IMG/VR virus record: IMGVR_UViG_3300045988_072631
Source: a virus
Strand: one strand, 5' to 3'
Length of the DNA stretch: 64,000 nt
Shown here: positions 1,754 to 63,588 of the stretch, in pieces
Numbering within the stretch: position 1 is the first letter of the stretch
Layout of the letters: every line of letters starts with the position of its first letter
Translations under genes and position numbers: made by a program
Notes under the pieces: model-generated
What the model was told of the DNA's origin: nothing
Database searches by the model: none
The model's input: the letters and a program-made list of their open reading frames with translations, nothing else

Positions 1754-4570
1754 TTGCTTTTTGAAAGTGGAGGTGCTTTTCTATTGGCATCTGAAAATCT
1801 GAAACAAACAATCCAAGGATACGAAAATTATATACAGTCGCATGGAATAGACGAAACAGTCATTGAGGCATACGTAGAAGCCTGTTCCGTGGCTATAAAT
1901 AATGAAAAGGATACAGAATATGGCTTGCAACTTACAAGGCGGTCTAAAGAGCTTATAGAACGTTACTGCATGAAGCAGACCGGTGGGACGATCTGGGATC
2001 TGGAAAAATATGCGTTTGCAAATAAAACAAGCTATGATCTGATTGACAAATTCCATTCAGTATTGCTTTTGGAAGCACAAAACAAGGTGGTTGACAGCTT
2101 TTTCCGGTATATTGAGCATAAGCGAGAACCTAAAGAACGGTTCTACATGCCACGAAGGAAACAATTTTTGAAAATTGGTCTGGTGGATGCTCTACAGGGA
2201 ATGATTGATGACAAGTACGACATTTTGTGCATTAGCCTTATTCCCGGTGCCGGGAAAGCTGGAAAGATGTCGTCTAAAGTCCTAACACCAAGTGGATTCA
2301 TTGAAATGCGTGATGTAAAGGTTGGAACAAAAGTTGTGGCCGGAGACGGAGAAAAAGCGTCTGTTATTGGAGTATATCCACAAGGGAAACGCCGAATATA
2401 CAGAATTACAATGAATGACGGAGGCTTTACAGAAGTTTCAGATAATCACTTATGGGAAGTACAAAATCGGTGTGATAGACAATTTGAAACAAGGACGGGA
2501 AATCATAGAACAAGAATAATAAAAACGGAAGATATGCTTAAAGATTTTATTATTGAAAAAGACGGAAGGAAAAACTATTCTATAGACTATGTTCCCGAAA
2601 TTAAATCCTTTGAAGAAAAAAAGTTTTATATACACCCGTATCTTCTTGGATGCTTATTGGGAGATGGTGGATTAAGTACAAAAACAATTTGCTTTACAAA
2701 AAAAGATAAAGAAATAGTTGAAAAAATCAATTCACTCATTGGCGGATATGAGTTTGTCCTAAAACATGGAAGTGATAAAGATTATTATTTGCGCTCTAAA
2801 TATGCTGCAAAAAAGCCCAACCTATTAAAAGAGGAACTAAATAGATTAGGCCTTCTTGGTACAAAATCTGCTACAAAATTTATACCAGAAGAATATCTAT
2901 ATTCAAGTCATGAACAAAGATTGTGGCTATTACGTGGATTGTTAGATACAGACGGATACGCAGAATACAAGGGAATAGAATATTCAACAGCTTCTCAAAA
3001 ACTTGCGGAAAATGTAACAGAATTAGTACGTTCTTTGGGAGGATATGCGAGCTTAACAAAACGGAAATCTGGGTACAGAGACAAGGACGGCAATAGTGTT
3101 TCGTGCCTTGATAACTATAGGATTACAATTTTGTTTAGTGCAAATCATGATAATCCATTTTGGTTAGAGAGAAAAGCTAAAATATATAATCCAAAACGCA
3201 AGGTTTGGAAACGTTATATAAAAAATATTGAGTATGTAGGAGAAGAAGAGTGCCAGTGTATTATGATTGATAATCCTTGCCATTTGTACATTACAGATGA
3301 TTACATTATTACTCACAATACTACCATTGAAAAATTCTTTAATGCTGCGGTAATTGGCTGGTATCCGAAAGACTTCAATCTGTTTTATTCCCATAGTGGC
3401 GATATTACCAGAATGTACTATGACGGTATATATGATATAGTTACTAATTCAGATGAATATGCGTGGAATGAGATTTTCCCTGATTTGTATGTGACAAGCA
3501 CAAATGCAAAGACAGAACAGTTCAACGTAGGAAAATATAAGCCGTTTCCATCTGTACAGTGCACATCTGTAGGAAGCAAAAATGCGGGTAAAGTCCGTGC
3601 TTCTAAGTTTCTGCTGGTTGATGATATGATTGGCGGTATCGAGGAAGCATTGAATCCGGCTATACTTGAAAAGTTGTGGAGTAAGTATTCCGTAGATGCA
3701 CGCCAAAGAAAAATCAAAGATACTGATGGTAAGAATTGTAAGGAAATACACATTGCAACCAGATGGAGTGTCCAGGATGTCATAGGGCGTATCCAAAAAA
3801 TGTATGAAGGTAATCCGAGGGTAAAGGTAATTGCTGTTCCTGATGTTGATCCGGTAACTGGACAGAGCAATTTTGATTATGAATTTTCCGGGTTCGATGT
3901 GGAGTTCTTTGAAGATCAGCAACTTTTGATGGATGAAATATCCTACAAGTGTCTGTACAAACAGGAACCGATCGAGCGTGAAGGACTGCTATTCCCGGAT
4001 GATAAGATCAGGAGATATTTGAATCTTCCGCATGGCACACCAGAGCTTATCACAGCACAGTGCGATACAAAGGGTAAGGGAACGGACTATTTTGTTCTTC
4101 CAGTCCTGCAAAAGTACGGTGATGATTATTACTGCGTGGATGCCGTGTGCGATAATACTGCCGATTATGAGATGCAGTATGAGAATGCTGCTAACATTTT
4201 GGTAAATAACGAGGTGCAGGAATGCGAGTTTGAGCGGAATGCTGGCGGTGATCGGGTGGCAATGGAAGTCAATAAACGTGTTGAGTCTAAAGGCTGGATT
4301 TGCAACATCACCGATACACCTACAGAGACAAACAAGGAAGCAAGAATCTTCCAGTGCTCTAGCTGGATTTTACAGCATGTGATTTTCAAAGACCCATCAA
4401 AGTACAAGCCGAATGAACCGTATGGAATAATGATGTCGTTGCTGAAACAGTATTCGGTATCCGGCAAAAAGCAACTTGATGATGTGCCAGATGTGTTTTC
4501 TAACTTTGCATTAAGGATAAACAAAGGAGTTGCAAAACGGCACACAACAATTATGTCAAGCCCGATTTAA
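1754..4570 (+). CDS. terL: terminase large subunit, interrupted by an intein
   Basis: 938-aa ORF. The exteins give Walker A PGAGK/T, Walker B FLLVDDMIG, ATRWS and a nuclease-like C-terminal half. TTG start at 1754 or 1784 (GGAGG at 1769-1773). The portal gene follows. Confidence 0.9.
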   Translation: MLFESGGAFLLASENLKQTIQGYENYIQSHGIDETVIEAYVEACSVAINNEKDTEYGLQLTRRSKELIERYCMKQTGGTIWDLEKYAFANKTSYDLIDKFHSVLLLEAQNKVVDSFFRYIEHKREPKERFYMPRRKQFLKIGLVDALQGMIDDKYDILCISLIPGAGKAGKMSSKVLTPSGFIEMRDVKVGTKVVAGDGEKASVIGVYPQGKRRIYRITMNDGGFTEVSDNHLWEVQNRCDRQFETRTGNHRTRIIKTEDMLKDFIIEKDGRKNYSIDYVPEIKSFEEKKFYIHPYLLGCLLGDGGLSTKTICFTKKDKEIVEKINSLIGGYEFVLKHGSDKDYYLRSKYAAKKPNLLKEELNRLGLLGTKSATKFIPEEYLYSSHEQRLWLLRGLLDTDGYAEYKGIEYSTASQKLAENVTELVRSLGGYASLTKRKSGYRDKDGNSVSCLDNYRITILFSANHDNPFWLERKAKIYNPKRKVWKRYIKNIEYVGEEECQCIMIDNPCHLYITDDYIITHNTTIEKFFNAAVIGWYPKDFNLFYSHSGDITRMYYDGIYDIVTNSDEYAWNEIFPDLYVTSTNAKTEQFNVGKYKPFPSVQCTSVGSKNAGKVRASKFLLVDDMIGGIEEALNPAILEKLWSKYSVDARQRKIKDTDGKNCKEIHIATRWSVQDVIGRIQKMYEGNPRVKVIAVPDVDPVTGQSNFDYEFSGFDVEFFEDQQLLMDEISYKCLYKQEPIEREGLLFPDDKIRRYLNLPHGTPELITAQCDTKGKGTDYFVLPVLQKYGDDYYCVDAVCDNTADYEMQYENAANILVNNEVQECEFERNAGGDRVAMEVNKRVESKGWICNITDTPTETNKEARIFQCSSWILQHVIFKDPSKYKPNEPYGIMMSLLKQYSVSGKKQLDDVPDVFSNFALRINKGVAKRHTTIMSSPI
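2258..3319 (+). mobile_element. intein with LAGLIDADG homing-endonuclease domain inserted in the terL P-loop (candidate class 3)
   Basis: Block A KVLTPSGFIEMRDV, block B SDNHLW, two LAGLIDADG motifs (LLGCLLGDGG, LLRGLLDTDGY), C-terminal IITHN followed by T. The N boundary is ambiguous (2258 or 2267) within the GAGKAGK duplication. Confidence 0.8.
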
Positions 4571-4586
4571 GCATGGAGGAAAGTTA

Positions 4587-5003
4587 ATGGAAACAAAGAA
4601 ATACCTTGGTCAGATCAAAAGATATGACTGTATGATCGCAAATAAAATCGAGGAAATCAAGAATCTCCGGGCAACCATATACGGGATGCCGTCATTCTCC
4701 GGTGGGGAACGTGTGCAGACTTCCGGCACAAAAGATATTGTTGGCAGCGGAGCGCCTAAAATAGCGGATATGGAGTCAGAAGTTAGGACTCTTTCTCGGA
4801 AAAGAGAGGAGATTGTCCGGCAGATTGAGAAGATCCCGGATGCGGATATGTACGATGTGCTTGCAAAGCGTTTTGTGCTGGACAAAGATTTTAAGGTAAT
4901 TAGCGTCGAAATCAAGAAATCAAAGCGTCAAACGTTTTTCATTTACGATAATGCCATTGATACGTTTGAGAAAATGTTTGGGTACCTGTACATGGGGGAT
5001 TAA
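4587..5003 (+). CDS. ArpU/DUF1492-like putative late transcriptional regulator (sigma region-4-like)
   Basis: ATG after GGAGGA. N-terminal coiled coil, MPSFSGGERVQTSG segment, C-terminal HTH-like region. The family call is from memory. Confidence 0.45.
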   Translation: METKKYLGQIKRYDCMIANKIEEIKNLRATIYGMPSFSGGERVQTSGTKDIVGSGAPKIADMESEVRTLSRKREEIVRQIEKIPDADMYDVLAKRFVLDKDFKVISVEIKKSKRQTFFIYDNAIDTFEKMFGYLYMGD

Positions 5004-5112: not shown

Positions 5113-5148
5113 AGAGCATTGCTGGAAACGGCAGTGCTCTTTTCTTTT
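5113..5148 (+). terminator. intrinsic terminator
   Basis: 12-bp stem AGAGCATTGCTG/CGGCAGTGCTCT (2 G-U pairs), GAAA loop, T-rich tail. Confidence 0.6.
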
Positions 5149-5166
5149 GCAGAAATGAGGAAAAAT

Positions 5167-14728: not shown

Positions 14729-14746
14729 TTTTAGTCTGATTTTATG

Positions 14747-14780
14747 GGGCAGTAGGTGTCAAAGCTTACTGCCCTTTTTT
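14747..14780 (+). terminator. intrinsic terminator
   Basis: 10-bp stem GGGCAGTAGG/CTTACTGCCC followed by T6. Confidence 0.7.
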
Positions 14781-14854
14781 GCTTATAACGAGCAACCGGA
14801 CACAGTTTTAGGTGTTCGCTAACCATCTAAAAACTAATGGTGGAGGTGAAATAA

Positions 14855-17800
14855 ATGGCAGCAACCACGATTGATGATCTTCAGATCAAGATTGAAGCGG
14901 ATGCGAAAACTGCTTCTGATAAGCTGGATGCACTTGCTCAAAGCATGGTGAAACTGGCATCAAGCCTGAGCATCAACGTTGGCAAGATGTCTGGTGTTGC
15001 TATTGGACTTAATAGCATTACCAAGGCATCGCAGAATCTCAATTCCAGAAACATTACTACGATGTCAACGGCTCTTGGAAAGATAGCAGGTGTGGATTCT
15101 GCTCAGATTTCCAGAGTAGCTGGTTCTATGACGCAGCTCAAAAACAGCGTTTCTGGCGGTTTTAACACCGATATGAGCGGAATAGTGAATGTTGCTGATT
15201 CGTTGTCAAAACTGGGCGGTATAAAAGCTACACAGGGCGCGCAAAACCTTGTGCTCATAAAAGATCAGCTTGCTCAATTTGTGCAGGGAATGAACAGCGT
15301 AGGAACATTTACGTTTGACCCAACCGGTCTGACAAACACAATTAAAGCTATTGCGAAGCTGGGCGGAAAGACCGCAACGCAGGCAACGGCAAATCTTCCG
15401 AGCATTTCTGCTCAATTACAGAATTTTGTCCGGCAGATGAACCAGATCGGCTCTATGTCGTTTGACAACAAGAATCTGACCGACCTTGTAACGTCCATAG
15501 GCAGGCTAGGAAGCGTCGCAAGTGGGCGAGCGGTAAATAATATACCTTTGCTTGCAAACAACCTTAAATACCTGTTTGAGACGCTCTCAAAAGCACCATA
15601 CATCAGCCAGAACATTATCCAAATGACCACGGCACTGGCTAATCTGGCACGTACAGGAGCATCTAGTGGTACTGCGGCAAGATCACTGGGAACAAGTCTT
15701 TTCTCATTCTCAAAATCTGCCGGTAACGCAAGAAAGAGTGCATTTTCTTTGGCAGGTGCTATCGGCAAGTTTTACGCAACTTACTGGATGGTCATTAGAG
15801 GGATTGGACTTTTCCGGGATGCTATTGATATCTCATCCGATTTAACTGAGGTTGAGAACGTTGTCCGTACCACGTTCGGAAATATGGAGTACAAGGTTAA
15901 TGACTTTGTGCAAAACTCCATTCAGCAGTTCGGTATGTCCGAGCTTTCCGTTAAGCAGTATGCCAGTACATTCCAGGCAATGGGGACTGCTATGGATGTC
16001 GGTGGAAAACAGATCGAGAACGCAAACAGGTTCTTAAATGGTGCCACAGATGGATATATTGGATTGTCAGATTCTATGTCAGATGTGTCTTTGAATCTTA
16101 CTAAACTGACTGCGGATATGGCATCTTTCTACGACAAAGATCAGGCAGATGTAGCCAAAGACCTGCAATCTGTATTCACCGGAATGGTAGTTCCGCTACG
16201 TAAATATGGACTTGATCTGACGCAGGCTACTCTGAAAGAGTGGGCAATGAAGAACGGCATGGATGCTGATATTAAGTCCATGACGCAGGCAGAAAAGGCA
16301 ATGCTGCGGTATCAGTACGTCCTAGCAAATACCACGGCAGCACAGGGGGACTTCGCCAGAACAGCCGATACATGGCATAACACTGTTGTCAGGCTGAAGC
16401 AGTCCTTCCAGCAGTTGGGCGGCATTATTGGTGGTGCGCTGATTAACGCATTCAAACCGTTTTTACGGACTCTGAATTTTGTTATGCAAAAGGTAATCAG
16501 CTTTGCAACAACGGTAACAAATGCCCTTGGTGCAATCTTCGGCTGGAAATTTGAAGTGTCCGGCGGTGGTGTAGCTGACGAATGGTCAGATGCGGCAAGT
16601 TCGGCTGATGATCTGGCAGACAGTACCGGTAAAGCAGCTGACAATACAAAGAAGATGAAAACCAATCTTCTGGCTATTGACGAATTAAATGTACTTAACC
16701 CGGATGATTCAGATTCCGGTTCCGGCGGTTCTGGTTCCGGTGCAGGTGGCGCAGGTGGCGGTGCTGGCTCTGGTGGTCTGGTTAAGACAGACACTATCTT
16801 TAAGGATTTTCAGAGTAACATTAAAGATTTATACCAGCTTGGACGGTATATCAGCGAGGAATTGTCCCGTGCAATGGAAAGTATTGACTGGGATAGCATT
16901 TACGAAAAAGCTAGAAACTTCGGAAAAGATCTGGCGGATTTCCTTAATGGTCTTATCAATCCGAGATTATTTGGAAATATCGGAAAAACCATAGCCGGAG
17001 CGCTGAATACAGCTCTGGAATTTTTAAATTCCTTCGGAACAGAATTTGACTGGACAAACTTTGGGGAGTCTATTGCTGCTGGAATCAATAAGTTTCTCTC
17101 AAACTTTAATTTCAAACTTTTAGCAACTACATTGAATACGTGGGTAAAAGGATTTGAAAAAGCGTTCGTTGCAGCAATAAAGAAATTCAAATGGTCAAAT
17201 CTGGTAAATGCCTTTACTGACTTCTTCGGAAATTTAAGGCTTGATACTGCATTGCTTTTGTTAATTCCTGCTTCTGGTAAAGTTACAAAAGCTTTCAAAG
17301 ACCTCAACAATGCAGTAAAACTGGTATCTTCTGGAATTGGTGCTTTCACTGGTGATGCAGATAGTATTAGCTACCTAGCAACAAAATCCTCTTCCCTTGC
17401 ATCTGCTGTTAATGTGGCAGGAGATTCTTTCCAGAGATTGATGTTTGGCATTCATTACGGAGACTGGGCTGGTGGATTAAATTCAGCCATTACAAACATA
17501 AGAGATAATCTCACCGGATTGCAAAAGGGCATTATAGGTGTTACTTCCGTAGTCGCAGAATTTGCGCTCATCCGTACTGCTTTTTACGATCTTCAGTCTG
17601 GAAGTGAAAACTTAGTTTCTTCCATTTCTAAAATTGCAGTAGGAGCAGGTGCAGCGAGCGCTGCTTTGTATGTTGCATTCGGTCCCGCTGGATTGGCAGT
17701 AGCGGCATTTACAGCTTTAGCGGCAGCAATAAGCGGAACAAGTAGAGCTTTTTCCGAGCAGGAAGATATGACGCTTTACGGTGAAAAGCTGTCTGATATT

Positions 17801-19816
17801 ACAGAGCGGTTAAGAGGAACTGCACAGGCAACTGTAGAAAGAATGCAAGCTTCAAAAGAATATGTGGACGAAGTAGGAACAGCAGAAGCTACAATGGCGC
17901 AGGATTTGGCTAATCAATATTTTGATCTGGCTGAAAAAGAGAATCTGACAAACGCAGAAAAGGAAAAAATGAAATCCTTGGCAAGCAGTTTGGTAGATAC
18001 TCTTCCGGGACTTAGCCAATACTATAACGAGGAGACTGGTCTTCTCAATACCACGAGAGAAAGCGTTGAGAACTTAATTCAGTCAAAACTTGAAGATATA
18101 AGATTATCGGCAATTCAGGACGAACTTAAAAGTGCATATTCCGAGCAGATCACTGCCTACAAGACGATGAAAGAGGCTTTGGATGATGCAAATGCCAGCA
18201 AGGAAAAAATGAATGAGTTGCAGGAAAATTTCAATTTAATTCTCGAAAAGCAAGACCTTGTAGCTCAATACGACCAGCTTTCACAAAAAATTCTTACTTC
18301 CACGGATGATACCACTGCCCTTGTTGATGAACAGCAAAGATTGTGGGATGAAATCACAAATAATGGAGAAGAGACTAACTGGCTAAATTACGATTATCTT
18401 TCACAGAAACTTGGTGAAGCGTCAGAAGATCTGAACGGCTTTAAAGGCAAATATGAAGAAACTATGCAAACTCTGGCAGATGCTAAAGGGGCATATGATA
18501 TGGTTGGAAATACCATTTCAGAGCTTACCAGCATGATGACGGATGGCATGGTTGAGGCTGCTGGTAATTCTATTTCAGGTTATTCTAATACGCTTTCAAC
18601 CAGCACAGAAGCACAGGAAGCGGCAAGCCAGATGGCGCAAAACGTGTTAGATTCATTCGCAGCGGCACAGGATAGCCACAGTCCTTCCAAAAAATTTGCA
18701 GCATTAGCAGGTGATTCTGTAGACGGATATGTTGTAGGAACGCAGGAAAATGCAAGCAAAATGGAAGATGCCGGGCGCTCTCTTGCTGAAAGTGCCATTC
18801 AAAGCTTTAATGATGGAATCCGGAATAATTCTCAAAGTACCATTGATGCAATGAATGAATGGATTTACGGCATCACATCCGCTCTTTCACCGGAAGTTTG
18901 GACACCGGCATTTACCGGAATGCTTACCGGATTTCAGACGAAATGGAGTGAACTTACTACATGGTGGTCTGGAACGGCAATGCCATCCTTCTTCTCTGCG
19001 AATGTGGCTCCGTGGTTCACGGATGCATTCTGGAATGCCAAAACGAACGGCATGAAGCTTGGCTTGCAGCAGAAGTGGAATGAATTTGTTACATGGTGGA
19101 AATCCAGCATTAACCTTTGGTTTACTGTAAATGTAATGCCATGGTTTACCGTTGCAAGGTGGACAGAACAGGGCGAGCATTTCAGAAAAGCTCTGAAAGA
19201 TAAGTGGGATGAATTTTCCGATCAGTGGCATAAAGACCTTAAAACGTGGTGGAACACAGATGTCACAGTTTGGTTTACCGTTGCTAAATGGAATGCATTC
19301 GGAACAAACATGAAAAATGGACTGTACGAAGGATTTAAGGGAATTGTTCAGATGGTAGGAAATGTAATGAACGGTATGATCGACGTATTCAATGCCGGTC
19401 TTTCCAAAATCCAAAAGTCCATGAACAGCCTGATAAGTGACTTCAACAAGAATGCCGCTGTGATGGGTGTCTCCTCACTTCACAAAGTACATTTTGATAG
19501 CATTTCTCATGTTACCATTCCAGCTTATGAAGTCGGAGGTTTCCCGGAAGACGGCTTGTTCTTTGCTAATCACAATGAAATGGTTGGTCAGTTCTCGAAT
19601 GGTAGAACAGCTGTGGCGAACAACGAACAGATTGTTGCCGGAATCCGTGAGGGCGTTAAGGCTGCGGTTACAGAAGCACTGGCTCCGTATCTGTCAGACA
19701 TTGCAGATACAAACCGGGAGATTGCAGAAAAGGATGCATCCATAAATGTAGACGGACGGGAACTGGTTAATGCGATCAATAATCGTATCAGCCGGAATGG
19801 TTTCAGTTTCACGTAA
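14855..19816 (+). CDS. tape measure protein
   Basis: 1653 aa, helical and Gly-rich segments, W-rich repeats near the C-terminus. Position after the chaperones. Confidence 0.9.
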   Translation: MAATTIDDLQIKIEADAKTASDKLDALAQSMVKLASSLSINVGKMSGVAIGLNSITKASQNLNSRNITTMSTALGKIAGVDSAQISRVAGSMTQLKNSVSGGFNTDMSGIVNVADSLSKLGGIKATQGAQNLVLIKDQLAQFVQGMNSVGTFTFDPTGLTNTIKAIAKLGGKTATQATANLPSISAQLQNFVRQMNQIGSMSFDNKNLTDLVTSIGRLGSVASGRAVNNIPLLANNLKYLFETLSKAPYISQNIIQMTTALANLARTGASSGTAARSLGTSLFSFSKSAGNARKSAFSLAGAIGKFYATYWMVIRGIGLFRDAIDISSDLTEVENVVRTTFGNMEYKVNDFVQNSIQQFGMSELSVKQYASTFQAMGTAMDVGGKQIENANRFLNGATDGYIGLSDSMSDVSLNLTKLTADMASFYDKDQADVAKDLQSVFTGMVVPLRKYGLDLTQATLKEWAMKNGMDADIKSMTQAEKAMLRYQYVLANTTAAQGDFARTADTWHNTVVRLKQSFQQLGGIIGGALINAFKPFLRTLNFVMQKVISFATTVTNALGAIFGWKFEVSGGGVADEWSDAASSADDLADSTGKAADNTKKMKTNLLAIDELNVLNPDDSDSGSGGSGSGAGGAGGGAGSGGLVKTDTIFKDFQSNIKDLYQLGRYISEELSRAMESIDWDSIYEKARNFGKDLADFLNGLINPRLFGNIGKTIAGALNTALEFLNSFGTEFDWTNFGESIAAGINKFLSNFNFKLLATTLNTWVKGFEKAFVAAIKKFKWSNLVNAFTDFFGNLRLDTALLLLIPASGKVTKAFKDLNNAVKLVSSGIGAFTGDADSISYLATKSSSLASAVNVAGDSFQRLMFGIHYGDWAGGLNSAITNIRDNLTGLQKGIIGVTSVVAEFALIRTAFYDLQSGSENLVSSISKIAVGAGAASAALYVAFGPAGLAVAAFTALAAAISGTSRAFSEQEDMTLYGEKLSDITERLRGTAQATVERMQASKEYVDEVGTAEATMAQDLANQYFDLAEKENLTNAEKEKMKSLASSLVDTLPGLSQYYNEETGLLNTTRESVENLIQSKLEDIRLSAIQDELKSAYSEQITAYKTMKEALDDANASKEKMNELQENFNLILEKQDLVAQYDQLSQKILTSTDDTTALVDEQQRLWDEITNNGEETNWLNYDYLSQKLGEASEDLNGFKGKYEETMQTLADAKGAYDMVGNTISELTSMMTDGMVEAAGNSISGYSNTLSTSTEAQEAASQMAQNVLDSFAAAQDSHSPSKKFAALAGDSVDGYVVGTQENASKMEDAGRSLAESAIQSFNDGIRNNSQSTIDAMNEWIYGITSALSPEVWTPAFTGMLTGFQTKWSELTTWWSGTAMPSFFSANVAPWFTDAFWNAKTNGMKLGLQQKWNEFVTWWKSSINLWFTVNVMPWFTVARWTEQGEHFRKALKDKWDEFSDQWHKDLKTWWNTDVTVWFTVAKWNAFGTNMKNGLYEGFKGIVQMVGNVMNGMIDVFNAGLSKIQKSMNSLISDFNKNAAVMGVSSLHKVHFDSISHVTIPAYEVGGFPEDGLFFANHNEMVGQFSNGRTAVANNEQIVAGIREGVKAAVTEALAPYLSDIADTNREIAEKDASINVDGRELVNAINNRISRNGFSFT

Positions 19817-19822
19817 AATTAA

Positions 19823-19857
19823 GGCGGTAGGGTAAAACCTGCCGCCTCTTTTCTTTT
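19823..19857 (+). terminator. intrinsic terminator after the tape measure gene
   Basis: 9-bp stem GGCGGTAGG/CCTGCCGCC followed by TCTTTTCTTTT. Confidence 0.7.
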
Positions 19858-21970: not shown

Positions 21971-22695
21971 TGACTGATATTCAGATTTTCAATAACCCAG
22001 ATTTTGGGGACATTAGAACCGTTGAGATCGACGGAAATGTTTGGTTTGTAGGAATAGATATTGCTTCAGCTCTTGGGTATTCCAATGTCAAAAACGCTGT
22101 TCCTACGCATGTAGACGAAGATGATAAGCTGAGTACTCAAATCGAGTACGCAGGTCAGAAAAGAACAGTTACAGTTATCAATGAATCCGGTCTCTATGCG
22201 CTTGTTTTCGGCAGTAAACTTGACTCTGCAAAGAAGTTCAAGAAGTGGGTGACATCAGAAGTCCTCCCGGCAATTCGTAAGAATGGCTCTTACACCATGC
22301 CGATCAGCACCAACGACAAAATCATGATTCTGGCGCAGGGGCATATGGAGTTGCAACAGGAGGTTGACAGCATCAAGAAGGACATGGAAAGTCTGAAAAT
22401 GGATTTACCGATTCTCCCGGTAGAGGAAGACCGGATAACGTCTGCTGTGAAGCGCAAGGGACTGGCTGTAATGGGAGGTAAGACCTCTAATGTGTATCGG
22501 GATAAATCCATTCGCCGCAAGGTGTATCAGGGCATCTATGCGAATTTGAAGTACAACTTTCAGATCAAGACGTACCGGGCATTGAAACGGAGTCAGGTGG
22601 ACAAGGCTATTGATATCATCAATAACTATCAGCCGCCGTATGTTCTGGCAGAACAAATCGACTCTGCAAATGCACAGCAGACCTTGATATTCTAG
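21970..22695 (+). CDS. Bro-N domain antirepressor-like protein
   Basis: IQIFNNPDFGDIRTVEIDGNVWFVGIDIASALGY ... [17 protein letters not shown]. Confidence 0.75.
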   Translation: MTDIQIFNNPDFGDIRTVEIDGNVWFVGIDIASALGYSNVKNAVPTHVDEDDKLSTQIEYAGQKRTVTVINESGLYALVFGSKLDSAKKFKKWVTSEVLPAIRKNGSYTMPISTNDKIMILAQGHMELQQEVDSIKKDMESLKMDLPILPVEEDRITSAVKRKGLAVMGGKTSNVYRDKSIRRKVYQGIYANLKYNFQIKTYRALKRSQVDKAIDIINNYQPPYVLAEQIDSANAQQTLIF

Positions 22696-22718
22696 GGGAA
22701 AACTGCTATAATAAAATC

Positions 22719-22869
22719 AAATTCAGCCGAATCCATCAGCTCCGCCCGGCTTGTCGTTGAGGGGAGAACGGGGCGAAAAGGATAGGACGAACCGAGCAAG
22801 GACGGCAAACATTTTGAGAATCACGCTCACTGGACATGGTAGAGATACTGTGTCTGGTGGGCGTTTTTT
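22719..22869 (+). ncRNA. structured leader / short terminated RNA (copy A), upstream of rha
   Basis: Promoter TTGATA-17-TATAAT (22684-22712); about 150 nt GC-rich; terminator 22824-22869. Homologous to 62732-62886. Confidence 0.55.
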
Positions 22870-22911: not shown

Positions 22912-23559
22912 ATGTTAGTTGAGATCACAAAAATCCAGAAAGAAGAAGTTGCGACCGTAACTAGCCTTGATGTAGCGGAAACGTTCGGAAAGGAACACCG
23001 TAGGGTTTTACAGGATATACGTGAGCTGAAATGCAGTGAAGATTTTCGATTGCACAATTTCGTGCAGTCGAAATATGTGAATGAACAGGGTCATAATCAA
23101 TCAATGTTTATTATGACCAGAGACGGCTTTACGTTATTGGCAATGGGGTATACCGGTGAAAAGGCTATGCAGTTCAAAGAAGCATATATTCGCCAGTTTA
23201 ACGCAATGGAAAAAGCTCTTATCGGAAAAATCAGAGAAAGAGAAAAAGGCATTGCAGTCCGGCAGGCTCTTACCAATACTTTGAAACAATCAGAAGAAAA
23301 TGATCGGATGCATGGTCATGCCTACTCCACATATACAAATGTAATTTACAAAGCTGTATTTGGTAAAAATGCAAAACAGCTCCGGGAAGAGTATGGAGTA
23401 GACGATAAAGCAAATTTGAGAGACTTTTTTAGCGAAGAGGATTTAAGAATAGTCCAGTCAAAAGAAATGCTTGTCAGCGGACTCATCGGGTGTGGTTGGG
23501 GATATGACCAAATTAAGAAATTCTTAAATGAAAACAATGCCTTGTTACAGGCCGTATAA
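22912..23559 (+). CDS. Rha-family phage regulatory protein
   Basis: VATVTSLDVAETFGKEHRRVLQDIREL N-terminus. Confidence 0.7.
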   Translation: MLVEITKIQKEEVATVTSLDVAETFGKEHRRVLQDIRELKCSEDFRLHNFVQSKYVNEQGHNQSMFIMTRDGFTLLAMGYTGEKAMQFKEAYIRQFNAMEKALIGKIREREKGIAVRQALTNTLKQSEENDRMHGHAYSTYTNVIYKAVFGKNAKQLREEYGVDDKANLRDFFSEEDLRIVQSKEMLVSGLIGCGWGYDQIKKFLNENNALLQAV

Positions 23560-29283: not shown

Positions 29284-30042
29284 TTACAACACATACGCCA
29301 CATAACCAATAACATCATCAACATCACCTTCTGAGCATCGGGATCTGTTATCTCTGATGCTCACATATTCAAATTTTCCATTTCCGCAAGGATTTCTGCG
29401 GGCAATGAACACATTGTCCCCGTAAATGATGATGATATCCTCGGTAGGACGTGGATTGCGGTCATTGGCAATCAGGAGAATATCATATGGAGAATAGTGC
29501 GGCATATAGTTGTCAACCGATGTTTTTATACCCATAAAAATTTGCGGCTTGATATTTTGCGGAATATCAGTGATATCAAGGAATTCAAACTCGCCGGAAA
29601 TATGTAACGTGCCGTCTGGATGTTCCTCCAGATTCATCACAGGGACAGTTTTTCTCCCTTGCCGGAAACCGCCCAAAGAAAGATCATATTGCCTGCGGAC
29701 GAACCAGCGCACAAAATACTGATAGTGTTCAGGCATTTCACGGAACATAGAAATGCAGTCCATGTCCTCTTCGGAAATAGTGTCAAGTCCGATTAGCTCA
29801 TCCACTGTAACACCTATAGCCTTAGCTAAGAGGGCGGCAGTGGACAGCTTGCAATCTTTGGAGTTCTGGTACAACAGATTTTTAAGCGTGTCAAATGAAA
29901 TACCGGCTGATTCAGCAAGTTCATGAATGGTAATATCTGAATACTTTAAGCAAATATCCAAATTGTGACGCAAATTATCTGTAAAGACAGTGTTTTCTCT
30001 GGTAAAATGTCCAGATAATTTATACAAATTTTCTTTTTTCAT
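29284..30042 (-). CDS. XRE-HTH regulator with a degenerate S24 (LexA/CI-like) C-terminal domain
   Basis: N-terminal HTH ITIHELAESAGISFDTLKNLL. The C-terminus aligns to the S24 fold, but VDNYMP replaces GDSMxP and IARR replaces the K-containing motif. Confidence 0.6.
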   Translation of the reverse strand: MKKENLYKLSGHFTRENTVFTDNLRHNLDICLKYSDITIHELAESAGISFDTLKNLLYQNSKDCKLSTAALLAKAIGVTVDELIGLDTISEEDMDCISMFREMPEHYQYFVRWFVRRQYDLSLGGFRQGRKTVPVMNLEEHPDGTLHISGEFEFLDITDIPQNIKPQIFMGIKTSVDNYMPHYSPYDILLIANDRNPRPTEDIIIIYGDNVFIARRNPCGNGKFEYVSIRDNRSRCSEGDVDDVIGYVAYVL

Positions 30043-36616: not shown

Positions 36617-37216
36617 ATGAGTAAAGCATTGGATATGGCAAGAGAACTGGTTAAGAAGCTGGAAGAAGAGGAAAAACAGCCAAAAGTGCAGCTTTTAACT
36701 TTGAATCCGGGAAATGTATTCAAAATTGGAGAGCATGATTTTATTGTACTGATGCAGTGCAGAGAGGAAACAGCAGTAATTTCCAAAGGATTCATGGCTG
36801 AAAATGTGAAATTTGATGAGGATTCGAGAAACTATAAAGAGTCAAATCTGAAAAAGGTTATCGAGAATCTGATCCAGCCGGTTATTGAGAAGGAAGTCGG
36901 ATCAAAAAACCTTATTGAGCATGAGGTTGATCTGACAAGTGTAGATATGCAGGATGAGTTCGGAGGATTCAAGTGCAAAGTCAGACCAATCACATTCGAA
37001 GAAGCCAGACTGTACAACAATTTACTGGTTAATAAAAACCTTAATGATTGGTGGTGGACATGCACACCTTGGAGCACAGAAGACAGAGGATGGAAATATT
37101 CAATTGCCGTTGTTGCTCCGTCCGGCCTTATCAACGACAACTATTTCAGCAACTGCTACGGTGTTCGCCCGTTTTGTATCTTAAAATCTAATATCTTTGT
37201 ATCGAAGGGAGAATGA
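36617..37216 (+). CDS. DGR target protein 1 (C-type-lectin-fold variable C-terminus)
   Basis: C-terminus WWWTCTPWS...VVAPSGLINDNYFSNCYGVRPFCI contains VR1. Confidence 0.8.
   Translation: MSKALDMARELVKKLEEEEKQPKVQLLTLNPGNVFKIGEHDFIVLMQCREETAVISKGFMAENVKFDEDSRNYKESNLKKVIENLIQPVIEKEVGSKNLIEHEVDLTSVDMQDEFGGFKCKVRPITFEEARLYNNLLVNKNLNDWWWTCTPWSTEDRGWKYSIAVVAPSGLINDNYFSNCYGVRPFCILKSNIFVSKGE
37107..37180 (+). repeat. DGR variable region VR1
   Basis: The 74 nt align to TR with 11 differences, 10 of them at TR adenines. Confidence 0.85.
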
Positions 37217-37857
37217 AAATGGGATTAACAATGAAAGCATTGCAGGAACAGATTGATGTGTTAAAAAAAGAAATGGAAGAGCTGAGAAGCGGCCAGAAAG
37301 TAGAATGCAACAAGAAATTTTCCAAATTTCTTACTATTGGTGAAACATTTGAACTGGCAGGAGTTAATTGGAAGATTATTGATATCACGAGTGATGGTTA
37401 TGTTTGTCTGTCTGATTCTATAGGTGAAATGAAATTCAGCTCTGAAAACAATGACTGGAGAACCAGCAATCTTCGAAAATATTTGAATGAAGAATTTTTG
37501 AAAAAGATGGAATCAGAAATCGGGACAGGTAATCTGATCAAATTTGAGAGAAGCCTTCTTTCTTTGGACGGTCAGACGGAGTACGGAACATGTGATGATA
37601 AAGTTTCACTTTTGACAGTGGATGAGTACCGGAAATACAGAAAGCTCATTCCAAATACAGACGATTGGTTCTGGTTGATTTCTCCGTGGAGTACACCTTG
37701 CAATGGCTTCAACAACAGTGTTACCGTTGTTGCTCCGTCCGGCAATATGCCTTCAACTACGGCGGTTACTACGGCCGCTGCGGTGTTCGCCCGTTCTGTA
37801 TCTTTTCTTCTGCAATCTTTGAATCAGAGGAAAAATAAATGCCAGAAACAGAACTGA
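37213..37857 (+). CDS. DGR target protein 2, frame-shifted inside its variable region
   Basis: Paralog of target 1 (WFWLISPWS...VVAPSG). A 5-nt duplication in VR2 shifts the frame. The ancestral frame ends at TAA 37836-37838. Confidence 0.7.
   Translation: MKMGLTMKALQEQIDVLKKEMEELRSGQKVECNKKFSKFLTIGETFELAGVNWKIIDITSDGYVCLSDSIGEMKFSSENNDWRTSNLRKYLNEEFLKKMESEIGTGNLIKFERSLLSLDGQTEYGTCDDKVSLLTVDEYRKYRKLIPNTDDWFWLISPWSTPCNGFNNSVTVVAPSGNMPSTTAVTTAAAVFARSVSFLLQSLNQRKNKCQKQN
37724..37802 (+). repeat. DGR variable region VR2 (79 nt, carries a 5-nt duplication)
   Basis: Positions 1-25 correspond to TR 1-25. Positions 26-79 correspond to TR 21-74 with adenine-specific changes. Confidence 0.8.
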
Positions 37858-38210
37858 AAGTAATTCTGAAAGCAAAAGATCTGGCAGCGCATACTTTGAG
37901 AGTGACATCGAATTGCAACCGGTATCCTAAAAAGTATAGATTTTCATTGGTGGACAAGATGCAGAATAAAGCACTTGAAATTTATGAATATTTGTACGAA
38001 GCCAACCGGACAGATTTGAAAAATTTTAAAAAGGAGCGATCAGAGTTACAGACAAAAGCAATCACAAATTGCGATGAATTGTTGTTTTATATCGAATTAT
38101 CAATGAAACTTAATATTATCAGCATGGAAAGCACGGAGTATTGGTCGAAAATGGTGTCCGATATAAAACATATGGCGATTGCATGGAGAACCAAAGATAA
38201 AGGACGATAA
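37839..38210 (+). CDS. avd: accessory variability determinant (Avd, four-helix bundle)
   Basis: 123 aa, basic and helical, lying between the targets and TR/RT. Confidence 0.75.
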   Translation: MPETELKVILKAKDLAAHTLRVTSNCNRYPKKYRFSLVDKMQNKALEIYEYLYEANRTDLKNFKKERSELQTKAITNCDELLFYIELSMKLNIISMESTEYWSKMVSDIKHMAIAWRTKDKGR

Positions 38211-38235
38211 AATTATAGGTTATGCGCTGTTTAAA

Positions 38236-38309
38236 CCGTTGTTGCTCCATCCGGCAATATCAACAACAACAATTACAACAACAGCAACGGTGTTCGCCCA
38301 TTCTGTATC
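38236..38309 (+). repeat. DGR template repeat (TR)
   Basis: A-rich AAC-codon tract (..AATATCAACAACAACAATTACAACAACAGCAAC..) matching both VRs. Confidence 0.85.
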
Positions 38310-38407
38310 AAACAGGCAGTTAGAGTAGGCAATAAGCCGAAATCAGAGAAAGATACAAAAAAGTGCATGACCTTCTCGAATAGGGTAAATACAAAGGAAT
38401 TTTTACA

Positions 38408-39430
38408 ATGGATAAAGATGTTATATGCAGCTATGAAAATCTGTATAAGGCATACCGGAAGGCTAAAACTGGAAAAGGTTTTAATGGAAGCTGTGCAAAA
38501 TTTCAGACTATGAATCTGGAAGGACTTCACTTATTGAAAGAACAACTGGAAAATCAGACATACCGGTTGAATCCGTACAACGAATTTAAGGTTTACGAAC
38601 CGAAAGAAAGAGTGATTAAATCGTGTTCTTTCAAAGACAAAATCGTCCAACATTGCTTATGCGACGAGATTTTGCATCCTGCATTAAGGGATCGCTTTAT
38701 TAGTACGAATTATGCAGGGCAGCAGGGGAAAGGTACTCATTTTGGAATGGATTGCTTGAAAGAGCAAATGATTGATTTTTATGAAGAACATAGACTTGAT
38801 GGCTGGATTCTTAAATGTGACATTAAAAAGTTTTTCTACCAGATAGACCATGAGATCCTGAAAAGAATTGTTGACTATCACTTTCCAGATGAGTACACCA
38901 AATGGTTGAATCACCTGTTTATTGAAAGCACAGAAGGTCTGGGGCTTCCACTCGGGAATCAGGTAGCTCAGGTATATGCACTTCTGATGCTAGATGGTAT
39001 GGATCACTTCATTACCGAAACACTTGGAATATCCAGATATGGAAGATACATGGATGATTTCTATTTGATCTATCCAGATAAAGAGTATTTGATGTTTTGT
39101 CTAAAACAGATCCGAGAATTTCTTGGAAGGCTGGAACTTGAATTGAATGGAAAGACACAGATTGTCCCATTCAAATGCGGAATAGCATTTACAGGTTTTC
39201 ATCACTACGTAACATTGGAAGGAAAATACATAAGAAAATTGAGTGGAACAAACAAACGAAAGATGCGTAAGAAAATCAGGAAATGGTCAGAACTGGTTAG
39301 ATCCGGGAAAATGACGGAAGAAAAATTTTTTGAGAAGTACAACGCTTGGAAAAACCATGCATTACATGGGAATTGCATTAAGTTGTGCCACTCGATGGAT
39401 TTATATGTAAAAGAATTATTGGAGGAATAA
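38408..39430 (+). CDS. DGR reverse transcriptase
   Basis: 340 aa. CDIKKFFYQIDH, LPLGNQVAQ, RYMDDFYLIY (YMDD). Confidence 0.85.
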   Translation: MDKDVICSYENLYKAYRKAKTGKGFNGSCAKFQTMNLEGLHLLKEQLENQTYRLNPYNEFKVYEPKERVIKSCSFKDKIVQHCLCDEILHPALRDRFISTNYAGQQGKGTHFGMDCLKEQMIDFYEEHRLDGWILKCDIKKFFYQIDHEILKRIVDYHFPDEYTKWLNHLFIESTEGLGLPLGNQVAQVYALLMLDGMDHFITETLGISRYGRYMDDFYLIYPDKEYLMFCLKQIREFLGRLELELNGKTQIVPFKCGIAFTGFHHYVTLEGKYIRKLSGTNKRKMRKKIRKWSELVRSGKMTEEKFFEKYNAWKNHALHGNCIKLCHSMDLYVKELLEE

Positions 39431-41500: not shown

Positions 41501-41938
41501 ATCAATAAAGTAATTTTAACAGGTAGATTCGCGAAAGACCCTGACGTTAGATACTCAAACGGAGAAAAGACAACTGCGGTTGCGAGATTTACTCTGGCAG
41601 TAGAACGAAGATTCAAAGGTGATGGAAATCCGACGGCTGATTTTATCAACTGTGTAGCATTCGGAAAATCCGGGGAGTTTATCGAAAAATACTTCCGCAA
41701 AGGTATGAAAGCTAATATTTGTGGACGGATTCAGACCGGCTCTTATACGAATAAGGACGGAAACAAGATCTACACCACAGATGTTCTGGTGGAAGAAATT
41801 GAGTTTGGTGAAAGCAAAAGCAGCAATCAGCAGAGCGCAGCTCCGGCTAATCCAAGTAATGCAGTTAATCCAATGACTGATGAAAATGGTTTCATGAACA
41901 TCCCAGATGGAATTGATGAAGAGTTACCGTTTGCGTGA
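41501..41938 (+). CDS. ssb: single-stranded DNA-binding protein (no canonical start codon)
   Basis: INKVILTGRFAKDPDVRYS...DEELPFA*. The frame opens after TGA 41495-41497. The first plausible codon is ATC 41501, 8 nt after AAAGGTGG. Confidence 0.7.
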   Translation: MNKVILTGRFAKDPDVRYSNGEKTTAVARFTLAVERRFKGDGNPTADFINCVAFGKSGEFIEKYFRKGMKANICGRIQTGSYTNKDGNKIYTTDVLVEEIEFGESKSSNQQSAAPANPSNAVNPMTDENGFMNIPDGIDEELPFA

Positions 41939-41954
41939 TAAAGAGGGTGAGAAA

Positions 41955-42659
41955 ATGAAAAAATTTGAACTTACAGCAGAATGCGTAACAAATATTTTTG
42001 GAAAAAAATTATTCAGAATCAAAGCACTGGTAGCATTTGAAAATGTGAAAGAAGGAGATCTGGGCGGATTCGTGGAGAAAGAATCTAACCTCGCTAATAG
42101 CGGTAAAGCATGGGTTTGCGGTGATGCACAGGTCTACGGTGAAGCACAGGTCTCTGGTAATGCACAGGTTTGCGGTGATGCACAGGTCTACGGTGAAGCA
42201 CAGGTCTACGGTAATGCACAGGTTTGCGGTAATGCACGGGTCTGCGGTAATGCACGGGTCTACGGTGAAGCATGGGTCTACGATAATGCACGAGTCTACG
42301 ATAATGCACGGGTCTACGGTGAAGCACAGGTCTACGGTGAAGCACAGGTCTACGGTGATGCACAGGTCTACGGTGATGCACAGGTCTACGGTAATGCATG
42401 GGTTTGCGGTAATGCACGGGTCTCCGGTGATCTGGATTATGCAATTGTTGGAGGTTTTGGAAGTGAGCAGCGGACAACTACATTTTTCCGGCAGAAGGAC
42501 GGAACAGTAGGAGTGAGGTGCGGATGCTTTTACGGAACACTGGAAGAATTCAGGGGAAAAGTTAAGAAAACGCACAAAGACAGCAAATACGGACAGGAAT
42601 ACCTGATGATTGCAGATCTGATGGAATTACATTTTGCAGGAGGAAAAGAGAATGAATGA
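41955..42659 (+). CDS. hexapeptide-repeat (beta-helix-like) protein
   Basis: 18 tandem G[DEN]A[QRW]V[YCS] units followed by a Cys-containing globular C-terminus. Confidence 0.6.
   Translation: MKKFELTAECVTNIFGKKLFRIKALVAFENVKEGDLGGFVEKESNLANSGKAWVCGDAQVYGEAQVSGNAQVCGDAQVYGEAQVYGNAQVCGNARVCGNARVYGEAWVYDNARVYDNARVYGEAQVYGEAQVYGDAQVYGDAQVYGNAWVCGNARVSGDLDYAIVGGFGSEQRTTTFFRQKDGTVGVRCGCFYGTLEEFRGKVKKTHKDSKYGQEYLMIADLMELHFAGGKENE
42102..42425 (+). repeat. 18 tandem 18-bp coding repeats
   Basis: GGTGAWGCACAGGTCTAC-type units. All six frames are open across it. Confidence 0.9.
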
Positions 42660-60535: not shown

Positions 60536-60614
60536 ACTTTTCCCTTTCTAGCCTGCCATCATCAGAGCCGGGAGGCTGTCCCGCGGCTGACGCTCCGATC
60601 TGGAGCGTTTCGGC

Positions 60615-60941
60615 TTAAAAATAAATATAAAAGCTGTTTCCGGTGCTGTTCCATTCTCTATCCAATATGGTGACTTTTGAAAGTCTGCCGATACATCCAT
60701 AAATTCCTGTAGCGTAGTATTCAGAATCAACCCGGCACCCTTTAGCGTTAGGAAATGATTTTTTAATTTCCTCTATAATTTCATTGACTTTATGGCAGCA
60801 GACCCCGCTTTCCTCGTTGAACGGCTCCAGCCGTGAAATATAGTGTTCTGCATTTTCAAACGTGTAGATATTGCACTGTAACTTGATACCGTCCATCATT
60901 TCGCCCATTCTGCAAAGTTCCTTGTGTGATAATTTTTTCAT
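60615..60941 (-). CDS. hypothetical protein (108 aa)
   Basis: ORF track; first gene of the minus-strand block. Confidence 0.5.
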   Translation of the reverse strand: MKKLSHKELCRMGEMMDGIKLQCNIYTFENAEHYISRLEPFNEESGVCCHKVNEIIEEIKKSFPNAKGCRVDSEYYATGIYGCIGRLSKVTILDREWNSTGNSFYIYF

Positions 60942-61212: not shown

Positions 61213-61410
61213 ATGAGCGAACCGAAAACATCAGCGGCACAAAGAAAAGCCGTTAGAGAGTACGAAAAAAACAACTATAGATTGAACATAGTATTCCCGA
61301 AGGGCACAAAAGAGCGGATTGAAGCACTAAACCTTGAAAAAACAAATTCCGCATTTATTCGAGATACTGTAATATCAAAACTTGATGAACTCGAAAAAAT
61401 TCTAAAATAA
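61213..61410 (+). CDS. RHH/Arc-like small DNA-binding protein
   Basis: RKAVREYEKNNYRLNIVFPKGTKERIEAL. N-terminus paralogous to 61954-62475. Confidence 0.55.
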   Translation: MSEPKTSAAQRKAVREYEKNNYRLNIVFPKGTKERIEALNLEKTNSAFIRDTVISKLDELEKILK

Positions 61411-62640: not shown

Positions 62641-62731
62641 CTGACGTAAAAAAAGGTATTTCGCGCGCGTAGCTCAACATATTGATTAAAAAAACATTGA
62701 CTTTCTAGCAGTTGTGGTATATGATTAAGTC

Positions 62732-62886
62732 AATTCAACCGGGTTCCGCAGGTTCTCCCAGATTGCCGAGGAGGGAACAAAGAGCCGCAACGGGACAGGC
62801 AGTTATAGAGCAAGGACGGCAGAAAGCAAAACAGAGGCGTCACGCTCACGAGATTAGATATAATTCTTTTCTCGTGGGCGTTTTTT
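62732..62886 (+). ncRNA. structured leader / short terminated RNA (copy B), upstream of the terS-like gene
   Basis: Promoter TTGACT-17-TATGAT (62697-62725). Terminator 62843-62886. Homologous to 22719-22869. Confidence 0.55.
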
Positions 62887-62919: not shown

Positions 62920-63588
62920 ATGGAAAAAGTGGAGGATTGCAAAGCGGATTCGGAAATATTTGAAAATGATATAGACATGTATTTGCAGATCTTCTGTGAA
63001 AACCAGAAACCGCCTATTGAGGATTTGACAAAAGCAAGTCAAAGTGTCTGGAATGCCGCGCTAATGTATGTACATAGACATATATTTAAGAATCGGGAAT
63101 ATTTCAGAAATACCGAAAATATACAGGCTAACAATAAAGCCCCTATCAGTAACTATTATATATATAATTACAATCTGGTAAATGATGTATGTGATTATTA
63201 TATATATCTATGCATGAAATATGAAAAAGAAATAAGTATATTGGGATTCAGTAATTTAACAGGCATCCCAGATAGCACGTTATATGATTGGGGATATAAT
63301 CCGCAGAGACAACTAAGCCGCGTTGGGTCGGAGATTTGCAAAAAGCTGCAAAAATACAACGAAGAAAGTCTCGAAAATAAACTTGCATCGGGCAAGGCTA
63401 ACCCCGTTGGAGTTATTGCAATACTTAACAGGCGGCACGGCTGGGCGAGTCCATACACGGCAGATAGCAACCGCCAGAGGACACAAGCATTGACGGCGGA
63501 TCAGCTGCCGAAGTTGGGACAGACGACACGAGAACTACCAGATAAAATACAAGATATAGTAGACAGTAATTGCAAAACCACAACATAA
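62920..63588 (+). CDS. terminase small subunit-like protein
   Basis: ATG 8 nt after AAGGAGG. HTH-like ILGFSNLTGIPDSTLYDW and NPVGVIAILNRRHGW. The family call is tentative. Confidence 0.45.
   Translation: MEKVEDCKADSEIFENDIDMYLQIFCENQKPPIEDLTKASQSVWNAALMYVHRHIFKNREYFRNTENIQANNKAPISNYYIYNYNLVNDVCDYYIYLCMKYEKEISILGFSNLTGIPDSTLYDWGYNPQRQLSRVGSEICKKLQKYNEESLENKLASGKANPVGVIAILNRRHGWASPYTADSNRQRTQALTADQLPKLGQTTRELPDKIQDIVDSNCKTTT

Follow-up and report, generated by a model that had tools for sequence, protein, structure and literature searches.

The DNA considered here is a 64,000-nucleotide stretch (64 kb; hereafter the window) of IMG/VR virus record IMGVR_UViG_3300045988_072631, a temperate siphophage genome with nearly all genes on the + strand. 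At two places – copy A, in front of rha, and copy B, in front of the small terminase gene terS – a sigma-70-type promoter is followed by a GC-rich leader of ~95 nt and a strong intrinsic terminator. Consensus scans and folding energies show the predicted promoter and terminator of each copy; together with matches to a covariance model of the leader (R1) they agree in placing both modules where a preliminary description of the window had put them. The parts of the two copies, and the first gene behind each, are as follows.

22684..22712, + strand: predicted promoter of copy A (-35 TTGATA, 17-nt spacer, TG, -10 TATAAT; 11/12 consensus matches)
22719..22810, + strand: leader RNA domain of copy A (R1 match, 65.9 bits)
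22726-22730: 5' RCCGA motif of the copy A leader
22731..22734, + strand: 5' strand of helix P2, ATCC (partner GGAT, 22780-22783)
22739..22747, + strand: 5' strand of helix P3, GCTCCG (P3a) and CCC (P3b) (partners CGGGGC, 22769-22774, and GGG, 22762-22764)
22753..22756, + strand: 5' strand of the pseudoknot, GTCG, within loop L3 (22748-22761) (partner CGGC, 22803-22806)
22765-22768, + strand: A-rich bulge, AGAA
22794..22807, + strand: invariant purine-rich strand GAGCAAGGA, then the 3' strand of the pseudoknot, CGGC, and an A
22823..22869, + strand: intrinsic terminator of copy A, predicted from folding energy (stem base ACGCTCAC/GTGGGCGT, then T6; stem 22823-22864, 19 pairs, dG -26.6 kcal/mol)
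22912..23559, + strand: rha, the first gene behind copy A (Phage_pRha match, 1.6e-32)
62697..62725, + strand: predicted sigma-70-type promoter of copy B (TTGACT-17-TATGAT; 10/12 consensus matches)
62731..62824, + strand: leader RNA domain of copy B (R1 match, 71.0 bits)
62743-62748/62791-62796, 62751-62756/62781-62786 and 62757-62759/62773-62775, + strand: P2, P3a and P3b of copy B
62765-62768 and 62817-62820, + strand: pseudoknot of copy B, GCCG with CGGC; the invariant strand is at 62808-62816
62843..62886, + strand: intrinsic terminator of copy B, predicted from folding energy (stem base as in copy A, then T6; stem 62843-62880, dG -22.5 kcal/mol)
62920..63588, + strand: terS (GP3_package-like small terminase, ATG at 62920), the first gene behind copy B

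Copies A and B are homologous, as the preliminary description had held: run on the window with filters off, R1 finds only these two, the third best match scoring 12.2 bits, and a wider family exists. Both copies contain the exact 14-mer GAGCAAGGACGGCA (at 22794-22807 and 62808-62821); allowing up to two mismatches gives three matches, a number that no shuffle reached, against 0.31 expected by chance. The terminator base CACGCTCAC...GTGGGCG is likewise the same in both. Folding of the two transcripts beats that of shuffled sequences (z = -3.55 and -3.41), and the GC content of the element is 0.51-0.53 against 0.41 for the window. One distance is corrected: the ribosome-binding site of rha lies ~30 nt beyond the end of the T-run of copy A, instead of the ~40 nt first given. 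The assignment of terS rests on a GP3_package match of 25.3 bits, under the Pfam cutoff of 29.4, and on close homologues that carry PF16677.

A structural alignment of 29 sequences, its register curated by hand because MAFFT misaligns the variable helices, gives a model comprising P2 (ATCCnn/nnGGAT in copy A), a 6-bp P3a, an A-rich 3' bulge, P3b (CCC/GGG) and a pseudoknot between loop GCCG and downstream CGGC; an optional extra hairpin is inserted in two lineages. With N padding left aside in counting, 93.8% of cells pair, a figure biased towards the structure to which the alignment was fitted; fairer measures are the slide controls, in which only 29-46% of cells pair when partners are moved by 1-3 columns, and the distinct pair types. 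Compensatory changes occur at 18 pairs, and the observed values were reached by 0/500 shuffles. Every pair of P2 (6/6) shows compensatory changes across the family and every pair of P3a (6/6) covaries, with 95.8% of P3a cells paired. The pseudoknot, which the preliminary description had suggested from two copies as a long-range helix (TTGTCG/CGGCAA), is paired in 29/29 sequences; its backing consists of few independent compensatory events, with G-C replaced by U-A in one lineage (L398/L399, loop UCCG with CGGA) and a G.U variant in L575, the tally being one GC-to-UA event and two wobble changes. Covariation argues for the two nested helices and, more weakly, for the loop-to-3' pseudoknot, and it indicates that the fold is under selection.

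The strand containing the invariant 14-mer has acquired single substitutions only across the family. Because U.G pairs are abundant, the + strand is the one that is transcribed and folded. P2 and P3 reappear in the single-sequence minimum-free-energy folds of several lineages, and RNAalifold recovers P3 on the curated alignment; on an unbiased MAFFT alignment it sees only the pseudoknot pairing and the terminator, owing to the misalignment of the variable helices.

Two other readings of the core were set aside. In the first, the 5' RCCG would close the fold by pairing with CGGC ('P1'); this helix paired in 77.6% of cells with zero compensation, was lost in L398, L464 and L575, and was replaced in the model by the pseudoknot; the 5' RCCG and the loop GCCG are two candidate partners competing for the same CGGC. 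A protein-coding reading fared no better: each frame is open through the core in no more than 2-5 of the 19 sequences, the frame is not a common one, and the lengths of insertions and deletions in the element are not multiples of three.

The element is a member of a real, previously uncatalogued family of structured leader RNAs in phages of gut Firmicutes. Pattern scans of IMG/VR, an RNA-independent retrieval anchored on terS and look-ups of terS homologues gathered 102 loci with 71 distinct sequences, from gut phage contigs and a prophage of Eubacterium ramulus. More than 12 lineages are represented, between which the helix sequences have wholly diverged. The E. ramulus prophage, at ~237-258 kb of contig CDRSNO010000001.1 in assembly GCA_977050415.1, contains one of these lineages and lies beside infC-rpmI-rplT; it indicates hosts among gut Firmicutes of the Lachnospiraceae type. 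A promoter-like site stands upstream of the element in 94/94 loci with enough upstream sequence. The TTGAnnTTCTAG promoter core that copies A and B had been noted to share is not kept across the family: the B-type RNA of L095 has a different promoter.

The preliminary description could place the RNA in no class known to it, and the searches bear this out. A scan of both copies against Rfam 15, with E up to 10, returned only spurious matches (mir-999, a pestivirus untranslated region, a snoRNA); at gathering thresholds the window as a whole gave only Hammerhead_II (60547-60615), and ten related loci gave no Rfam match on the element. Neither copy matched the isolate phages of INPHARED, and a literature search for the invariant sequence returned nothing relevant. 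Homologues with compensatory changes, by contrast with an Rfam match, were there to be found. A scan of genome contigs was swamped by chance matches in GC-rich genomes and gave L206 as its only real match. The element occurs in phages and prophages only, never beside metabolic genes.

Both copies are present in at least 13 IMG/VR contigs besides the window. Each contig has one A-type and one terS-type copy, diverged from one another and each heading a unit. A-type copies of different phages are more alike than are the A-type and terS-type copies of one phage, which points to two old paralogous subfamilies. In relatives the A-type copy keeps its place after the tape-measure region, and what follows it differs from one relative to another: rha, an ORF6N-like antirepressor, Bro-N, a replication-organiser-like gene, or no gene ahead of that for a 137-aa protein. 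The association with rha is therefore incidental. The next same-strand gene begins 21-436 nt 3' of the element at the A-type loci measured, and a few tens of nt at terS-type loci. Between an A-type terminator and a replication-organiser-like gene, L361 carries an int-alpA RNA (RF02996, 598-666, + strand, 47.1 bits); a stretch, AACTGGCTAGTGATTGC, with apparent similarity to this region lies 3' of the A-type copy in L134, L136, L142 and L151.

The terminator base was also considered as a free-standing module, since ACGCTCAC...GTGGGCGTT occurs behind unrelated short leaders (L321, L305, L378, L311, L382). With 17 specified bases, 31 gap lengths and ~1e11 bases, a rough estimate puts the matches expected by chance in IMG/VR in the hundreds, and these occurrences are treated as coincidence. 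In another phage group (L321, L335, L338, L350, L356, L376) a promoter-to-terminator unit of ~85 nt lies antisense between two genes (L321 1056-1309, - strand); it probably encodes a small antisense RNA that is not related to the element and has the terminator base ACGCTCAC/GTGGGCGTT by chance.

A second line of evidence comes from the terS locus itself. Homologues of terS number 1490; from an alignment of 14 TerS proteins, containing no RNA information, the 80 best terS loci of IMG/VR were fetched. A gate was scored where terS is directly preceded by a promoter of the TTGAY type and by a terminator with dG <= -10. Every one of the sampled loci with enough upstream sequence has such a gate (78/78), and the leader within it takes several forms.

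Present element: 23 loci, ~95 nt, pseudoknotted
Type X: 44 loci, ~30 nt, AT-rich, unrelated
Type Y: 10 loci, ~105 nt
Other: 1 locus (L468)

What is conserved is the principle of a promoter and then a terminator before terS; the intervening RNA has alternative forms, of which at least three are unrelated leader types. In this they recall nut or qut sites, which likewise fall into classes by specificity.

The type X (L411-L466 and others) and type Y (L449-L473) modules lie in the region from ~270 to 0 nt before terS. The type X modules have a small, covarying hairpin (GCGA/UCGU, GCAG/CUGU, GCGG/CCGU) that overlaps the 5' arm of the terminator, and its loop, AUGCCGG, resembles the L3 loop of the element, AUGCCGU; the hairpin may be an antiterminator hairpin, and the loop a shared recognition motif. 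A second type X leader per phage was sought without success: there were 90 matches, and among the 80 matches listed all are in different contigs. Just upstream of copy B the window encodes two paralogous RHH-like proteins (61213-61410 and 61954-62475, + strand; motif PKGTKERI, phrog_31631). The family recurs upstream of terS with all three leader types (33/39 of type X, 11/15 of the element, 5/10 of type Y). It was rejected as a regulator co-varying with the present RNA on account of that breadth, and is a candidate for a general regulator of the gate.

The genes and terminators among which the two copies lie are these.

1754-4570, + strand: terL, 938 aa, with an intein-like insert
4530-5003, + strand: regulator-like gene (phrog_36 its only match, none in Pfam or NCBIfam), called ArpU-like in the preliminary description
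5114..5149, + strand: intrinsic terminator in the late block, between the phrog_36 gene and the portal gene (dG -17.9 kcal/mol; no strong promoter after it)
5374: portal
8256: major head protein
14746..14785, + strand: intrinsic terminator in the late block, just before the tape-measure gene (12 pairs, dG -18.4 kcal/mol)
14855-19816: tape measure
19822..19857, + strand: intrinsic terminator just after the tape-measure gene and upstream of copy A (dG -20 kcal/mol), which closes the first late unit
21970: Bro-N/ORF6C gene, after several small genes
23679: weakly DnaD-like gene
24833 and 25253: conserved pair of genes for 137-aa and 767-aa proteins
29284-30042, - strand: CI-like repressor
From ~31 kb: early genes (Ant, SbcC-like, RT, RecT, methylase, excisionase/integrase)

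The best reading of the two copies, which we put forward tentatively, is that each is a cis-acting, RNA-dependent and probably processive antitermination gate, one in front of terS and the other in front of a second gene block. A host sigma-A-type promoter would fire into the ~95-nt leader, and the leader would fold into its two nested helices (P2 and the bulged P3) and the pseudoknot between the P3 loop GCCG and CGGC; the invariant purine-rich strand, AGG...GAGCAAGGA, would lie between the helices and the 3' strand of the pseudoknot, with the strong intrinsic terminator 13-20 nt further on. By default RNA polymerase would stop at this terminator and release an RNA of ~150 nt. The genes behind the gate – terS and the head and tail genes for copy B, cargo such as rha and distal genes for copy A – would need antitermination that depends on the folded leader. 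A factor of phage or host could load onto the leader, as at nut, or the leader could itself bind RNA polymerase, as put does, and the modified polymerase would probably go on to read through further terminators of the late block.

That termination is overridden, and by way of the RNA, we infer from several results taken together. The terminator is independent of the aptamer-like fold and thermodynamically dominant; it cannot be removed by refolding, which is what antitermination mediated by a factor or by RNA polymerase would predict. When the 3' arm of the terminator was blocked in constrained folds of 19 representatives, the partners taken up by the 5' arm differed per lineage, and no conserved antiterminator emerged. 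A terminator/antiterminator switch was rejected for want of a consistent alternative fold, the candidate pairings (loop GUGAG/CUCAC and GAGC/GCUC) not being conserved. Downstream of copy B, strong + strand terminators lie at ~5140, 13152, 14775 and 19847 with no strong promoter after them, so that late transcription from the terS promoter would have to ignore several terminators, that of copy A included. Processivity is thus plausible. These results on refolding and on downstream terminators, together with those on factors, promoter control and action in trans given below, favour a cis-acting gate that works through the folded RNA.

Several observations pull the other way. Behind copy A there is no strong terminator before ~30.9 kb, so processivity is not required there. 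Searches of Pfam, PHROGs and NCBIfam recognized no Q-, N-, LoaP- or Nus-like antitermination family among ~50 open reading frames, small reading frames being scanned only in part; this is a weak negative, because ~87% of PHROG families are without known function. An antitermination gate does not account for the near-invariant 8-bp base of the terminator, which includes a U.G pair, and the conservation of the 5' RCCGA motif may point to a second conformation, as would suit a switch. An undetected DNA-binding regulator might, finally, control the promoters.

We regard as doubtful the further proposal that the leader constitutes a new class of antiterminator RNA, either autonomous (put-like) or sensing a small molecule or phage signal, with the pair of copies gating both late units. 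A small-molecule riboswitch, in which the pseudoknotted domain would bind, as an aptamer, a metabolite or signalling nucleotide of host or phage and termination efficiency would change on binding, is unlikely. The build is aptamer-like, with a pseudoknot and with junction and loop nucleotides that are invariant amid variable, covarying helices; no more than 20 nt separate it from an intrinsic terminator, and the competition of the 5' RCCG and the loop GCCG for CGGC could be a conformational switch. Yet the terminator's 5' arm finds different partners in different lineages, with no conserved antiterminator, the element keeps to phages and prophages away from metabolic genes, related phages place in the same position a type X leader of ~30 nt, too short for an aptamer, and no riboswitch in Rfam matched at E up to 10. 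Of the two analogies offered by the preliminary description, the riboswitch-like attenuator is weakened by the first two of these points; the antitermination target resembling lambda PR'-tR' still appears to be the best reading. Overall, the earlier interpretation of the module is partly supported.

Control might instead be exerted at the promoter, by an activator of the RinA/ArpU/Ltr type or a repressor, with the terminator insulating the unit against read-in and the fold serving stability, processing or translation. The late operon of Gram-positive phages is classically activated upstream of terS by proteins of the RinA/ArpU/LtrC family (PMC3152322, PMC3753634), there is a gene for a phrog_36 'transcriptional regulator' in the window, and the RHH-like protein accompanies every leader type. 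We nonetheless consider this quite unlikely. Near-consensus sigma-A promoters should need no activator, and promoter spacers differ between lineages that have the same RNA. An operator shared by promoter A, promoter B and the CI region was not found: TCTAGCAGTT-like sites number 9 against 3.5 expected and are scattered. The phrog_36 gene is downstream of terL and not upstream of terS. A terminator of -22 to -27 kcal/mol would, moreover, also block transcripts from its own promoter, and overriding would still be needed. Least probable of the explanations weighed is a stand-alone small RNA, the ~150-nt terminated transcript acting in trans, for instance in immunity, against a target in the host or by sponging a protein. 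Such an RNA would fit a complete promoter-to-terminator unit with a constitutive-looking promoter and a very strong terminator, whose base is conserved like the core, as though part of a functional RNA. It fits poorly with an element that is always directly 5' of the first gene of a unit and co-oriented with it, the ribosome-binding site at terS-type loci being a few tens of nt past the terminator, and with the 78/78 terS relatives that keep promoter and terminator even where the RNA between them is unrelated or ~30 nt long. A trans target complementary to the invariant strand was also sought, and none was found on the + strand mRNAs of the window; an excess of sites resembling the invariant strand is due to a AAGGACGG motif within coding sequence and to the repeats of a locus that looks like a diversity-generating retroelement.

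That locus centres on a reverse-transcriptase gene (38408-39430). A repeat resembling a template lies just upstream of the gene, and two neighbouring open reading frames each carry a variable-like copy at the 3' end. The repeat stretches by the gene are as follows.

37071-37193
37703-37802
38202-38322

The mismatches of the variable-like copies fall preferentially on adenines of the template copy (15/35 and 17/26), which gives the locus the appearance of a diversity-generating retroelement with two targets. A degenerate tandem repeat array (42100-42431) lies inside the open reading frame 41907-42659. In terL a LAGLIDADG/Hom_end homing-endonuclease domain sits between the N-terminal part and the RNaseH-like nuclease domain, and the protein therefore probably contains an intein. 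The phrog_36 gene overlaps the end of terL and has a strong intrinsic terminator directly 3' and then the portal gene, an odd place for a late-gene regulator.

Other features lie closer to copy B. A type II hammerhead ribozyme (60547-60615, - strand, 54.7 bits) is encoded ~2.1 kb upstream, on the opposite strand. In L326, which is of an unrelated lineage, the element likewise has a hammerhead II upstream (780-849, - strand, 56.9 bits) and about as far away, so the neighbourhood of hammerhead and element is conserved. The region separating the window's hammerhead from copy B contains a perfect 49-nt direct repeat (61133-61181/61407-61455). Directly upstream of promoter B runs a polypurine tract, A and G only, of ~140-180 nt (62480-62620, + strand), for which a role as packaging site, curved DNA or UP-like element may be considered; related phages have low-complexity stretches of a similar kind ahead of their terS leader.

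The proposed antitermination gate is, by analogy, closest in function to the late gate of lambda, PR'-tR', and closest as an RNA to put of HK022, and it appears to be a member of none of the systems with which we compared it. With PR'-tR' (Q/qut) it shares a strong, constitutive-looking promoter, a close intrinsic terminator with the late genes behind it, further terminators downstream and, as we propose, a short terminated RNA as the default product. Recruitment of Q takes a DNA site in the promoter together with a sigma-dependent pause, and no conserved fold is needed in the RNA up to the terminator. Here, in contrast, it is the RNA fold that is strongly selected and no Q homologue was recognized; a conserved DNA element in or beside the promoter was not found, the spacers being variable and a shared operator-like motif absent. 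The parallel with lambda N/nut lies in two RNA sites heading two units, the RNA being in each case the would-be platform of an antitermination complex. The element differs in that its conserved fold has neither the 15-nt boxB hairpin (a 5-bp stem with a GNRA-like pentaloop) nor a boxA consensus, and no N-like protein was identified among the reading frames searched. CGCUC in the terminator arm has what we take to be a resemblance to the start of boxA, and not a match to it. The put RNA consists of two stem-loops in ~70 nt and belongs to a lambdoid coliphage. It acts in cis, suppressing termination on the polymerase that made it (PMC9378689). Like the element it is a structured RNA just downstream of a promoter, present as two diverged copies per genome that each head a transcription unit; the element, a 95-nt bulged hairpin with a pseudoknot in phages of Lachnospiraceae, is set apart from put by description and not by direct alignment.

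Parallels in the Gram-positive world differ in other ways. The conAn2 RNA of pLS20 (PMC8191782) and canT of Tn916 (PMC11658703) are cis-acting, processive antiterminator RNAs that start long operons and are followed by functional terminators; ConAn depends in addition on the protein ConAn1, whose gene lies immediately upstream (PMC8191782). Both, like the element, stand at the start of an operon in mobile elements of Firmicutes, but they are 300-450 nt long, conjugative and single-copy, with no defined consensus fold, whereas the element is a ~95-nt phage RNA. Transcriptional riboswitches share with it a compact, pseudoknotted domain in a 5' leader, covariation, invariant junctions and then an intrinsic terminator; they differ in having a mutually exclusive antiterminator and metabolic genes, and the neighbouring phages here use a 30-nt leader. 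The RinA/ArpU/LtrC systems of temperate Gram-positive phages likewise have the control point of the late operon directly upstream of terS (PMC3152322, PMC3753634). There, activators that bind DNA work on a promoter under tight regulation; here a near-consensus promoter is followed by a conserved RNA fold and a terminator. An Ltr activator gene next to and upstream of the terS promoter was not found, the only candidate in the window being the phrog_36 gene downstream of terL. A promoter-proximal terminator with antitermination is thus a kind of system already known. What is new is the RNA, its pseudoknot and its two-copy use in Gram-positive phages, with a mechanism that we infer to be of this kind.

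To our knowledge, how late genes are switched on in temperate phages of Lachnospiraceae and other gut Firmicutes is essentially unknown, and we know of few RNAs of the polymerase-controlling kind – put, EAR, conAn2 and canT. The covariation-backed fold, together with a Eubacterium ramulus assembly that contains a prophage of the family, makes the question directly testable. If the RNA mediates antitermination, it would represent a new class of RNA controlling RNA polymerase in Gram-positive bacteria and, if this is true, a compact and portable genetic gate.

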